Shown here piece by piece: positions 55,214 through 62,218 of a stretch of DNA of 64,000 nt (position 1 is its first letter; each line of letters starts with the position of its first letter). Made by a program: the position numbers and the translations under genes. Origin of the DNA: an uncultured Gemmatimonadaceae bacterium (GTDB lineage: Bacteria > Gemmatimonadota > Gemmatimonadetes > Gemmatimonadales > Gemmatimonadaceae); assembly GCA_963740355.1 (NCBI GenBank), contig CAVUDW010000002.1, forward strand, positions 1,408,001-1,472,000. The letters run 5' to 3'. The notes beneath the pieces were generated by a model. It searched no databases. It saw nothing but the letters and a program-made list of their open reading frames with translations, and was not told where the DNA came from.

Positions 55214-55265
55214 GCCTGTTCAGCAGTCGGATTTCGTTGCAGTCCCTCACATGGAAGGAGTAGTC

Positions 55266-55475
55266 ATGTTCAGGAATTTCACGCCGTACATCGACGTCAC
55301 ACAGATGGTGCTGTACGCGTTCTGGTTCGGGTTCTTCGGCCTGATCCTGTATCTCCGTCGTGAGGACAAGCGCGAAGGGTATCCGCTGGTGTCGAACGAC
55401 CCGAATCGCCTGCATCAGGGCTACCCGGCATACCCCGGGCCGAAGGAGTTCATCCCCACCCACCCGGAGCACTAG
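55266..55475 (+). CDS. puhA: RC H subunit, transmembrane half
   Basis: [38 protein letters not shown]. Confidence 0.9.
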
Positions 55476-55478
55476 TCC

Positions 55479-56069
55479 ATGTCAGAAGTCATCATTCCGA
55501 AGTACGAGGTTCCGAAGAACGCGAGGCCGGTGGATTCGAACTTCGGTGCCCCGCTGGAACCGATCGGAAACCCGTTGACGGCTGGTATCGGGCCAGGCGC
55601 CTGGGCCGATCGCGCCGACCGTCCGGACCTCACGATCAAGGGAATTCCGCGCATCGTGCCGATGCGTGTGGCGACGGACTTCTTCGTTGCCCATCAGGAT
55701 CCCGATCCACGTGGCCTGGAAGTCCGCGGCATGGATGGAGCCGTCGGCGGCAAGGTCGTGGATCTGTGGGTCGATCGCAGCGAGCCGTGCCTGCGCTACG
55801 TGGAGGTGGAAGTGACTGGTGGTGGTCGTCGCCTGGTGCCGGTGCCGTTCATGCGCATCCCGCGTCCCGCGAACTGGTTCCCGTTCATGAACGACGGTCC
55901 GCAAGCCTCCCACGTGCAGATCGATGTGTTGAAGGGTGCTGACTTCGCCGGCATTCCGGAAACCAAGTCACCCGATCTCGTCACCCTGCTCGAAGAGGAC
56001 AAGATCAGCGCGTACTTCGGCGCCGGATCGCTCTGGAACTCCGAGCTTCGCTTCGGCCCACTGGTGTGA
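55479..56069 (+). CDS. puhA: RC H subunit, cytoplasmic PRC-barrel half
   Basis: GAPLEP.GNPL.AGIGPG.WA.R.D.PD, DPRG, DLWVDR.E, VTLLEEDKI.AY.G.G. Confidence 0.92.
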   Translation: MSEVIIPKYEVPKNARPVDSNFGAPLEPIGNPLTAGIGPGAWADRADRPDLTIKGIPRIVPMRVATDFFVAHQDPDPRGLEVRGMDGAVGGKVVDLWVDRSEPCLRYVEVEVTGGGRRLVPVPFMRIPRPANWFPFMNDGPQASHVQIDVLKGADFAGIPETKSPDLVTLLEEDKISAYFGAGSLWNSELRFGPLV

Positions 56070-58697: not shown

Positions 58698-59870
58698 TTA
58701 CGGCGTCGAGCGGGCGGGCACCTGGGTCGCTGCGGGCATCGCAGCGGCGGGTGTGGTTCCCATCGCAACTTCGACTCCGGCTGCATTCGCCTTCATCGGC
58801 GCGACACTCAGCTTGGCGCCGACAGGCGTCGGCACCGGGGCGGTGAGTGGGGCACCGTCGTAGAGCGGCTTGCCACTGGCATCGAGCGGGCCAGTGGTCG
58901 CATCCCAGCCAGGAGCGCCCCAGAGAGCAGGGTAGTCCTTGACCATCTTCGCGCCATACAGCGGCTTGTAGATGCCGTTGTGACACGTGACGCACTGCGC
59001 CTTGGGAGCATCACCATGCTCGCCGAGACGACTGCGGGGATACACAGGCTGCAGCGGGTTCAGGTAGTTCATGTTCATGTCGCGGAGCATGGCCGATCCG
59101 TAGAGCGCCACCACGCGCTTCGGTGTCGACTCTTCCCATGACCCCATCGCGCGCGTGTTGTGACAGTACGTGCAGTTCACACCGAGCGCCTTGGACTGCG
59201 TGACCATCAGGGCGTAGGTGTTGTACGTCTGCCGGATCGACGTGCGATTGGCTGCGGCGCCCGGCAGCGGTTCCACCGTGTGGCTCTGCACACGGATGTC
59301 GTCGCGGTCGAGGTAGTGCCGCAGGATCTGGTTTTCGTTGCTGTAGAACCAGAGGCCATTCGGCAACGGCTGCCCGCGATGACAGGTGTAGCACGTGACA
59401 CCGGTGCCAGCTACATGTTGCGTGTAGTCGCTGTTGATGCGCTGCGTCATGCGGAGCATCATGCGAGCCACCAGCTTCGTGTAGATCGGCTGACCCTTGT
59501 TGGAGTCAGCCGCGAAGTTCGCGGTGTTGTGGCAGTAGGCGCAGTTTCCTGCGCCGCCGGCCACCCAGGAGCTCATGGCCGTCATCGTGCGCCCGAACTC
59601 GGCGGCGCTGATGTTGGTGAGCACCTGCACGTTCTTGTACTGTCCCATCGGGCCAGGCGGAGCCGGCGGAAGCGGTTTCGGAGCCTGGTTGTACGCCGCC
59701 GTCTTGGCGATGTCATCCGGGTCGTAGTTCGTTTCCATGGCGACGCCGCGGAAGCCGTGCTGGGCGATCTGCTTCGGTCCCGGCTTGAGGACATCCGGTG
59801 ACTTCTTGCAGGCGCCCAGCGCCACCAGCGAGAGCAGTGCACCGATGCGCACAGTGTGACGTGTGATCAT
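58698..59870 (-). CDS. pufC: RC-bound tetraheme cytochrome c
   Basis: Lipobox LGAC; CAYCH, CYTCH, CTYCH, CVTCH. Confidence 0.96.
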
Positions 59871-61381
59871 GGTGTCGTCTCCGCTGGCAGTACGACCTTG
59901 CCTTCGCTGGCGATCTCGACGCGGCGGTTGCGGCGACGGCCTTCCGGTGTGTCGTTCGACACCGAGGGCTTGGTCTGTCCGAATCCGCGCGACTTGATGC
60001 GGTCTGCGGCGATGCCGTACTTGGTGGTGAGCATGTCGCGCACACGATCTGCACGACCTTGCGACAGCGTGAGGTTCGCCGTCGGGTCGCCGACATTGTC
60101 GGTGTGACCCTGCACCTCGACCTTGAGCGTCGGGTACTTCGTCATCAGGGCACCGAGGTTGGCCAGCTCGGCATCCGACTCGCCGCGCAGGGCATCCTTG
60201 CCGGTGTCGAAGTAGACCGCACTCATGATGAACAACCCGTCAGCGTTGAGCGAGTCGCGCATGTTGTCGGTCGACAGCACGGGCTTGTTGAAGACTTCCA
60301 AGTCGCCGGTGAGTTGTGCACCCTGCGGCACGGGGAGCTGCTGCGGCACCAACCGGCCGTTGGCATCCCGCATCATGCCCGGGAAGCTGTCCGGCGCCAC
60401 GCCCATGTACTGGCCGCGGAGGTACGGAGCCTGCTCTGCCTTCACTTCGTACTGCACCGGGTAACTCGGTGCCACGCCGTGCTTCTGTGCCCACAGGAAC
60501 CAGTTGTCGACGGCCGTCCCGGTCAGGAGAATGCCGATGCCACCGGTCAGTGTGGTCAGGGTCGCGAACCAGAATGCCCAGCGATGGATGGATTCCGTGG
60601 TGGCGTTGAAACCCATCGTCCAGCGCCAGAACAATCCCATGCGTTCGCCGGCGGTGCCACGATCCGTGATCTGTTCGATTTCGCGTTCCGCGCCGTAGCG
60701 ACTGGCGGCAAGGACTGTCGCCGCGTGCATCGCGAAGAGCAGGGCCGAGCCGTAGAGGAACACGATCGAGAGCATGTGGAACGGATTGTAGAACAGGTTC
60801 CCGTAGCGAATGGAGAATGACGCCGTCCAGTCGAGGTGCGGGAAGATTCCGAACGGCACCGCTTCCGACCAGCTGCCGACCATGATCGGGCGAATGAAGC
60901 CCAACACCAGGTAGAGCCAGATGGCTGACGCGAAGGCCCAGACGATGTGTGAACCCATGCCCAGCGCACGTGTGCGCTGATACATGCGGACCCACCAGAG
61001 CAGGATCGCGAGCGTGAGGAAGAAGCCGGCCAGCAACCACCAGCCACCCTGATTGAGCGGCGGAATGTGCAAGCCGTACTTCGGTGCCGGCGGTTCGAGC
61101 GAGAGCCACGGCAGTTGGCGAATGAACTGGATGGGACTCCAGCCCACGGACCGCCACATGTTGAGCCCGATGATCTCGAACGCGATGAAGCCGAAAATCA
61201 GCGAGAAGACGCCGGTGGTGCCGAGGTAGATCGGCCCAATCTGCGCATCGCCGAACTTGCCGGCCCAGTAGTTGAGAATCGGCTTGCCGTCGCGACCCCA
61301 GGTGCCACCGCGGAGCGGCACACCTTCGTCGACGGGTGCGTGCACCTGCACGCGGGTCCAGAGGTTCTGATATTCAATCAT
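59867..61381 (-). CDS. pufM: RC M subunit with C-terminal OmpA-like peptidoglycan-binding domain
   Basis: [38 protein letters not shown]; then VYFDTG..GHTDNVG..NL.LS.GRA..V..GFGQTKP..NDT.EGR..NRRVEI. Confidence 0.97.
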
Positions 61382-61387
61382 TCGACA

Positions 61388-62218
61388 TTACCTCGGGGCC
61401 CAGAAGGGCAGGTAGAGCCACCAGTTCCACCAATCCTGCCAGCCGCGCGTCCAGAACGGACCGCTGAGGAGGATGCAGACGGCGCTCCAGAAGCCCGCAT
61501 TGAGGGCGAGGAAGAGGCCGAGACGGTGAATACCGATTGCGCCGATGGAGTAACCCACGGCGTCGCGGAAGAACGAGTTTTCATGTTCGCTCGTCTTCAC
61601 CGCTTCACCCTTCGGCGGCGCCGTCACTGACAGGATCAGTGAACCGTGCATCGCGAGGGCGAGGTTGTTGGTGAAGAAGAACGTGATCGCCAGCATGTGC
61701 GCCGGGTTGTAATGGAAGTGCTGGAACTGATAGCCGACGTTCGACACCCAGTCGAGATGACTGAGAATGCCGTACGGGAAGCCATGGCCCCATGCACCCA
61801 GCAACACCGGGCGGATGATGACGAGGGAGATGTACGCGAACACCGCGACGGAGTACGCCACGGGGACATGGTAGCCCATGCCCAGTTTGCGGCTGATTTC
61901 AGCCTGGCGCAGCACCCAGGCCACGAAGGCCACGGTCGCGCACATGGTGATGATCTGCCAGAGTCCGCCATCTCGCAGCGGCGCGAGGCGCAGCCCGTAA
62001 CTCAGGTCGGGCGGGGCGATATTGATCTGCCAGAGATTCCAGGTGGGGCCGATCGCTGCGCCATAGACGCAGAGGGCGGTCCCGAGTACTGCTGCAAACG
62101 CCGCCACCACGCCGAAAAATCCGACGTAGAACGGGCCAATCCAGAAATCGAACAAGTCACCGCCGAGGAGGGTGCCGCCTCGCACGCGATACTTGTATTC
62201 GAAGGACATCATCGCCAT
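61388..62218 (-). CDS. pufL: RC L subunit
   Basis: [42 protein letters not shown]. Confidence 0.98.

Follow-up and report, generated by a model that had tools for sequence, protein, structure and literature searches.

A reaction-centre M subunit with an OmpA-like domain in Gemmatimonadota, a putative cell-wall tether of the photosystem

The pufM gene of an uncultured Gemmatimonadaceae bacterium encodes a photosynthetic reaction-centre M subunit that runs on, in one unbroken frame, into a complete OmpA-like domain of the peptidoglycan-binding type. It lies in a stretch of 64,000 nucleotides (NCBI GenBank assembly GCA_963740355.1, contig CAVUDW010000002.1, positions 1,408,001 to 1,472,000 of the forward strand), which is here called the window and in which all coordinates are given. 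The fusion is real, conserved and under selection, and the added domain is predicted to have an OmpA-like peptidoglycan-binding fold with the ligand-binding Asp and Arg intact. On balance it appears to be a non-covalent wall anchor of the photosystem, of which we infer both the binding and the physiological consequence; a cell-wall tether would be the most economical reading of the domain and its best-supported function.

The fused gene and its added domain

The gene occupies 59867..61381 on the minus strand, as do all the parts and codons of it given below, and is a single uninterrupted open reading frame (ORF) of 504 codons plus a stop, identified from the ORF listing, Pfam and a search of the genome. 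The Photo_RC profile (PF00124) matches residues 51-303, the core (60473..61231), with an E-value of 5.3e-105 over positions 1-259 of 260, and the OmpA profile (PF00691) matches residues 390-486 (59924-60214) over its whole length, positions 1-98 of 98, with an E-value of 2.7e-19 and 69.8 bits, which exceeds the curated gathering score of 27.2. An extension of about 75 residues separates the two. The best matches of the protein in the PDB are all M chains and none is an L chain, the closest solved homologues being the reaction-centre M chains (RC-M) of Gemmatimonas phototrophica and G. groenlandica (7o0u_M and 9h19_M, E-values 3.6e-165 and 1.5e-162), and the L gene of the same genome is only 32% identical to it. 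By its profile, its similarity to M chains and its operon context PufM is thus the M subunit of a type-2 reaction centre. None of the residues H182, H202, H219, E234 and H266 varies in the 27 fusions aligned, and these we take to be, in Rhodobacter numbering, the ligands of M for the special-pair and accessory bacteriochlorophylls and the non-haem iron; the ground for equating the positions is that the numbering of PufM is near-identical to that of the Rhodobacter chains in alignments. At the end of the gene the letters tcat at 59867..59870 of the plus strand read ATGA on the coding strand, where the TGA stop of pufM overlaps the ATG start of pufC.

The initial annotation of the window had described the gene in much these terms. 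The length of 504 amino acids and the unbroken frame into a complete OmpA-type domain are borne out by the ORF listing, the translation and Pfam alike, every motif quoted for PufM is found in the translation, and the overlap of stop and start lies where it had been seen. The His motifs called intact are so, and the domain placed at about 59909-60217 agrees with both the Pfam match and the limits of the folded domain.

The architecture is widespread. A protein database of 5.8 billion proteins was searched, with matches grouped into clusters at 90% identity and the best 120 listed, and the combination of PF00124 with PF00691, a search for which had been proposed in the annotation, was found in 54 of these 120 clusters at 56-94% identity to the query. 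Apart from two fragments the 54 are 465-613 amino acids long; they come from several sources, several lie on contigs of more than 100 kb and a few are named 'Gemmatimonadales bacterium'. The named records from metagenome-assembled genomes (MAGs) that carry the PufM fusion, three in number, are Gemmatimonadales/Gemmatimonadaceae. Two long members (P0024 and P0037, 613 and 609 amino acids) have a further Pro/Ala/Gly-rich low-complexity tail of about 110 residues after the OmpA domain. Of the 401 Gemmatimonadota genomes sampled, 21 contain pufM. In six of these 21, from two families, the domain is detected by hmmsearch with a fused-domain profile: three belong to the genus of the window, one to another genus of that family and two to the second family. 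The other 15 lack it and have M proteins of 365-405 amino acids. The same architecture occurs at nine independent genome loci, with neither a stop nor a frameshift in any of them. Seven pairs inside the clade of the window were compared by the ratio of nonsynonymous to synonymous substitution rates (dN/dS), which lies at 0.035-0.098 in the core, 0.067-0.204 in the linker and 0.083-0.269 in the OmpA part; more distant pairs, with dS near or above 1, were left aside. As the values for linker and domain are well below 1, both are under purifying selection.

It could be supposed that the fusion is an artefact: pufM and a separate OmpA gene might have been joined by an incorrect gene model or in a chimeric assembly, or run together through a frameshift or the loss of a stop codon. 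Section 3.4 of a bioRxiv preprint of 2025 (10.1101/2025.09.22.677880) raises this for the three cases it mentions. The whole junction is moreover spanned by no single metagenome contig. Four sequencing runs gave short, low-depth contigs, and in one of them pieces near-identical to the window do tile 59905-60283 and 60331-60491, within the region where the initial annotation had wished to see reads; they are weak extra support and are silent on expression. Against an artefact stand the recurrence of one architecture at nine independent loci and, across several sources, in 54 clusters of the 120 listed, the lack of any stop or frameshift at those loci, the low dN/dS across linker and domain, the assembly of the genome in only 5 contigs and the overlap of the pufM stop with the pufC start, just as a coupled operon would predict. 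The artefact reading is effectively refuted and its remaining probability negligible.

The part of the chain beyond the core can be divided in three. Residues 1-343 align with the RC-M of G. phototrophica (7o0u_M, 367 amino acids) and residues 1-338 with 9h19_M (392 amino acids), therefore the first 40 or so residues past the last helix, including a conserved PDSFP, are common to M subunits of Gemmatimonadota. This proximal periplasmic extension, residues 304-343 (60353..60472), is homologous to the C-terminal extension of Gemmatimonas RC-M, which shares with the window PufM the core and these first residues, whereas in Gemmatimonas it finishes in a short Asp/Ser-rich tail without an OmpA domain. 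The extension of G. phototrophica RC-M has an O-glycan at Ser331 (PMC8849296), and the PDSFP motif of PufM aligns with this region, which fits a periplasmic location of the extension. The periplasmic side of the M C-terminus is itself taken from established structures, namely the solved reaction centres, together with the Ser331 glycan. Low-complexity tails with D-S-[T/L/A/M] repeats after about residue 335 are seen in PufM without the OmpA domain at sixteen Gemmatimonadota loci; resembling PDSFP in their context, they may be multiply O-glycosylated. The PufM sequences inspected, with and without the OmpA domain alike, mostly finish in x-Pro just ahead of the pufC start.

Next comes a spacer, residues 344-370 (60272..60352), for which AlphaFold gives a predicted local distance difference test (pLDDT) of 33-56 and which varies in length with the clade, the OmpA profile starting at residue 380 here and at 373-375 and 354-358 in other clades. 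The OmpA-like domain of peptidoglycan-binding type then follows as residues 371-492 (59906..60271), an N-terminal helix and a core, on the evidence of Pfam, AlphaFold2, phmmer and Foldseek. The AlphaFold2 model of residues 360-504, made with 52 aligned sequences, has a pLDDT of 86.7 and a predicted template modelling score of 0.83, and predicts an N-terminal helix followed by beta-alpha-beta-alpha-beta-beta. The best matches in sequence and in fold are the C-terminal domains of OprF and Acinetobacter baumannii OmpA (5u1h, 3td3-3td5), at 36-39% identity and a root-mean-square deviation (rmsd) of 1.1-1.3 Å: the top Foldseek match is OprF (5u1h, 1.3 Å over 110 columns), with A. baumannii OmpA (3td3/3td4/3td5) at 1.1 Å over 104 columns and 36% identity, and the superposition on 3td3 and 5u1h, of a predicted model rather than an experimental structure, has a probability of 1.00. 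By phmmer the same chains are reached with E-values of 2e-22 to 1e-18. Other Foldseek matches are TagL, Pal, YfiB and MotB.

The entry 3td4 is a complex with diaminopimelate and 3td5 one with a pentapeptide. The Asp and Arg of the A. baumannii OmpA diaminopimelate pocket lie in the GHTD and LSxxRA motifs of 3td3, and with them align D428 of PufM (GHTD, codon 60098..60100) and R443 (LSQGRA, codon 60053..60055), the spacing being 15 residues in both; the pocket residues are presumably those numbered D271 and R286 in A. baumannii OmpA. The pocket Asp and Arg are invariant in 52 of 52 aligned fusions, and GHTD, N436, L439, S440, R443 and NRRVE in 27 of 27, in a domain that as a whole retains 35-48% identity to the query across clades.

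Origin of the fusion and parallels in other photosystems

The history of the fusion was approached with a quick LG+G4 tree of the PufM core, built on the first 315 residues of 122 rows (58 domain-bearing, 52 of Gemmatimonadota type without the domain and 12 proteobacterial outgroups), database proteins shorter than 340 amino acids or without a complete N-terminus and four duplicate rows being excluded. The window sits in a wholly domain-bearing clade of 23 rows with 100% support in the Shimodaira-Hasegawa-like approximate likelihood-ratio test (SH-aLRT), and over the tree the presence of the domain changes at least 8 times, 4 of these changes being forced by well-supported branches. A single clade of all OmpA-bearing cores, as one gain and no loss would give, was rejected (log-likelihood 184.7 lower, p 0.001 in the approximately unbiased (AU) test). 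When the 59 M-fused OmpA domains themselves are held as one clade, the log-likelihood is 10.4 better than that of the free quick search (p-AU 0.65; 82 rows, 113 columns). These are quick trees whose groups were named after the trees were seen, and the support at the root is weak (60).

The nearest unfused relatives of the domain are Gemmatimonadota proteins of about 450-590 amino acids with a C-terminal OmpA domain. One of them is in the same genome, a 455-residue open frame (G000:C3:1792091-1792447; L083:1495-2859, minus strand) whose OmpA domain is 42% identical to the fused one and in which Pfam recognises nothing else; this frame and the similar ones of Gemmatimonadota would be a candidate donor family. 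A split form was not found in the Gemmatimonadota loci examined, where neither a separate OmpA gene nor a PufC-OmpA lies next to pufM. Most likely pufM was fused once to a native OmpA-family domain, and its 3' part was afterwards lost or exchanged several times, which is the favoured reading of these trees and not a demonstration. The lineages with PufM as long as the solved Gemmatimonas chains look like secondary losses of the domain.

A second carrier of the domain appears to have arisen in Proteobacteria. The profile of the fused domain matched ORFs just downstream of pufM in nine proteobacterial loci, and Pfam identifies these as PufC (CytoC_RC) with a C-terminal OmpA domain. A PufC ORF was identified at 55 non-Gemmatimonadota loci in all, these nine among them, and the hosts of the nine are Methylibium, beta proteobacterium AAP99, Burkholderiales/Burkholderiaceae MAGs and Sphingomonas/Sphingomonadaceae MAGs; at two of the nine the contig seems to carry a frameshift. 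For the PufC of AAP99 the combination of PF02276 with PF00691 is present in all of the best 120 clusters listed, amongst whose names are Piscinibacterium candidicorallinum, Rubrivivax sp. and Burkholderiales. In the domain tree five of the six PufC-fused domains included form a clade of their own (99% SH-aLRT), the sixth, from Sphingomonas, being on a long branch. As most of the PufC-fused domains thus stand in a separate clade, their origin is independent of the PufM fusion. The two fusions concern the same photosystem, the same periplasmic face, the same domain family, the C-terminus in both cases and neighbouring genes of one operon, but here the carrier is the cytochrome subunit and not M. 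A search of the PDB found no solved reaction-centre cytochrome chain that extends into an OmpA-like domain, and all Gemmatimonadota PufC ORFs found in the loci examined are free of the OmpA domain.

The initial annotation, made without searches, knew of no described example of such a photosystem, but precedents exist. The PsaB of Gloeobacter violaceus has an OmpA-like C-terminal extension of 155 amino acids, confirmed by mass spectrometry in purified photosystem I (PSI) and proposed to be a peptidoglycan anchor (PMC11565984); the extension is reported there for G. violaceus and G. morelensis, and the older finding is credited to Inoue et al. 2004 (FEBS Lett 578:275). Residues 383-497 of PufM align by phmmer with residues 750-869 of the PsaB chain 7f4v_aB (872 amino acids; E-value 6e-15). 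In both cases a core reaction-centre subunit with a periplasm-facing C-terminus bears an OmpA-like domain proposed as a peptidoglycan anchor, but Gloeobacter is a cyanobacterium, its centre is of type 1 and its fusion is independent, whereas the domain considered here is borne by M, in the type-2 centre of Gemmatimonadota. Reports of the Gloeobacter form cover two species, and the PufM form is found in at least 54 sequence clusters.

The only printed remark that we found on the PufM and PufC fusions themselves is in section 3.4 of the preprint mentioned above (10.1101/2025.09.22.677880), which records an OmpA-like domain in three PufM and in some PufC homologues, proposes that they take part in photosynthesis, calls them 'relatively rare' and allows for inaccurate gene models. 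No paper was found that combines the reaction centre M subunit, OmpA-like and peptidoglycan, and a literature search with Gemmatimonas or Gemmatimonad, reaction center and OmpA gave an unrelated review only. The PufM-OmpA fusion is therefore barely described so far, whilst its kind is already known from the OmpA-like wall anchors of inner-membrane complexes and from Gloeobacter PsaB.

Putative wall anchoring and rival readings

If the domain is an anchor, the M subunit would be made as one polypeptide of 504 residues whose chain enters the periplasm after the fifth transmembrane helix and there consists of the shared segment of about 40 residues, a flexible spacer of about 30 residues and the OmpA-like domain. 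With its pocket of Asp428 and Arg443 the domain would hold, non-covalently, the peptidoglycan stem peptide that contains diaminopimelate. The reaction-centre and light-harvesting complex, which sits in the cytoplasmic membrane, would in this way be fastened to the wall, much as the flagellar stator is by MotB. The complex might then be immobilised or positioned, and the distance from membrane to wall fixed above the cytochrome.

Such arrangements are familiar from other machines. In the MotB/PomB stators and in TagL/TssL of the type VI secretion system a C-terminal periplasmic OmpA-like domain of an inner-membrane protein binds the wall and immobilises the machine, and the matches of the PufM domain in sequence and structure include TagL (7bba, 5m38), MotB (6ysl, 3s0h) and TssL (6aeo). 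These machines need a fixed anchor for force or for firing. No such mechanical demand is obvious for a photosystem, in which anchoring must therefore pay in another way, through position, spacing or stability. OprF and OmpA have the same Asp/Arg spacing as PufM, but their domain hangs from a beta-barrel of the outer membrane, whilst that of PufM would hang from a pigment protein of the inner membrane and near the wall from the other side. What the initial annotation had put forward, a photosystem tethered to the wall, thus keeps its support from the fusion, the selection on it, the fold, the pocket and the periplasmic end, and loses its claim to be new. The particular roles it suggested for such a tether, which could hold the complex at the peripheral membrane, limit invagination or set its position, are speculative.

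Several observations weigh against an anchor. We infer peptidoglycan binding by the PufM domain from conserved residues. In one clade only about 51-55 residues lie between the end of Photo_RC and the start of the OmpA profile, and part of so short a linker probably packs on the complex, which could limit its reach to the wall in those forms. A structure prediction, which had been called for in the annotation, turned out well for residues 360-504, but the full-length AlphaFold2 model (mean pLDDT 65, residues 305-365 below 50, core and linker poor) yields no geometry. No metagenome piece from the four runs bridges the whole junction; a search for sequencing runs listed no RNA run, and in no run was as much as half of the words found, the best share being 0.38. 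The fifteen pufM-bearing Gemmatimonadota genomes without the domain include PufM of the lengths of the solved chains, 367 and 392 amino acids, and since the domain is missing or repeatedly lost in relatives it is dispensable for a working reaction centre. Finally, the domain of Gloeobacter PsaB is not seen in the cryo-electron microscopy (cryo-EM) map (PMC11565984); it could be mobile, or some copies could have had it removed.

Some of these points would suit a domain that is a structural or protein-binding module of the periplasm, docking on the cytochrome subunit or the light-harvesting complex 1 (LH1) ring and stabilising the complex in the manner of RC-S, or docking soluble electron donors. 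Gemmatimonas complexes hold the reaction centre and LH1 with extra extrinsic periplasmic polypeptides, such as RC-S in G. phototrophica (PMC8849296), the purifying selection on the linker (dN/dS 0.067-0.204) suggests contacts, the spacer is short in some clades, and OmpA-like domains can be partners of proteins, the complexes YfiB-YfiR and Pal-TolB being among the structural matches. However, what is invariant over the 52 sequences is the diaminopimelate pocket and the NRRVE core, and the surface has otherwise diverged, to 35-48% identity between clades. The same type of domain on three photosystem subunits (PsaB, PufM and PufC) favours a common external ligand, and one such ligand is easier to accept than three different docking surfaces. 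A docking module is unlikely.

It is similarly improbable that the fusion merely delivers or co-expresses the domain, with cleavage after membrane insertion leaving a free periplasmic OmpA-like protein, or one that is degraded, and a mature photosystem that is untethered. Processing is not foreign to these complexes, as it shortens RC-S in G. phototrophica by 60% (PMC8849296), the spacer at 344-370 is predicted to be disordered and hence accessible to proteases, and the absence of the PsaB extension from the Gloeobacter map (PMC11565984) could be read in this way. Against this, mass spectrometry of purified PSI is reported to have detected the Gloeobacter extension (PMC11565984), the genome, which has at least 5 other OmpA-domain genes, could encode a free domain separately, and the fusion has been kept in frame across 56-94% identity. 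A non-covalent anchor to the wall is thus preferred to both alternatives.

A wider proposal would take wall tethering as a general, convergent solution where reaction centres stay in the cytoplasmic membrane, with three carriers (PsaB of Gloeobacter, PufM of Gemmatimonadota, PufC of Burkholderiales/Sphingomonadaceae), and with position, lateral mobility or the spacing of membrane and wall as what is fixed. The ancestral photosystem of Gemmatimonadota would then have been wall-anchored and the solved Gemmatimonas structures would be forms that arose by secondary loss. This is tentative, and we would give it a little less than an even chance. To our knowledge Gloeobacter, Gemmatimonadota and the aerobic anoxygenic Burkholderiales/Sphingomonadaceae keep their photosystems in the cytoplasmic membrane, and Gemmatimonadota and the aerobic anoxygenic phototrophs are without intracytoplasmic membranes, a matter on which two papers checked gave no statement.

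Reaction-centre and antenna complexes are treated as freely diffusing particles of the membrane and have mostly been studied in species with intracytoplasmic membranes. A selected domain on M, its counterpart on PufC in many freshwater Burkholderiales and the PSI of Gloeobacter would together indicate that many phototrophs couple their photosystem to the sacculus. If this is true, it affects the positioning and diffusion of the complexes and the organisation of quinone and cytochrome traffic, and bears on why such organisms build no invaginated membranes. The question is directly testable, since AAP99 and Piscinibacterium candidicorallinum are named strains with the PufC-OmpA form. Both Gemmatimonas structures published from cryo-EM stem from lineages without the OmpA domain. 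The view taken in section 3.4 of the preprint (10.1101/2025.09.22.677880), of fusions that are rare and possibly artefactual, is also corrected, as they are far commoner than was remarked there.

Genomic surroundings

The right end of the window is a photosynthesis gene cluster. On the minus strand two light-harvesting complex genes (beta/alpha), pufL, pufM and pufC follow in a row, and on the plus strand are bchN/B-like genes, bchH, bchL, bchM, a gene for an acsF-like rubrerythrin protein, pucC/lhaA, a split puhA, a puhB-like gene and crtB. Directly upstream of pufM is pufL (61388..62218, minus strand; 276 amino acids, from the ORF listing and Pfam), and downstream of it pufC (58698..59870, minus strand), which encodes a tetrahaem cytochrome subunit of 390 amino acids (CytoC_RC, E-value 2.5e-98) without an OmpA domain. 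The N-terminus of PufC (59808-59870, minus strand) resembles, on a reading of its sequence, a lipoprotein signal peptide with a lipobox cysteine. The genome comprises 5.45 Mb, is 94.5% complete and has the pufM of the window as its only full pufM match.

With the PufA of the window as the query and an E-value of at most 0.01, one pufA was found in the whole genome (62337-62528, minus strand) and a second alpha gene, pufA2, was not detected. In Gemmatimonas pufA2 builds the outer LHh ring. The split puhA consists of two ORFs on the plus strand, set apart by one stop and a few bases, of which 55263-55472 holds the N-terminal helix of the H chain and 55479-56066 the remainder with the PRC barrel. 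Such a division into puhA1 and puhA2 is a trait already described for Gemmatimonadota (PMC12817894, section 8).

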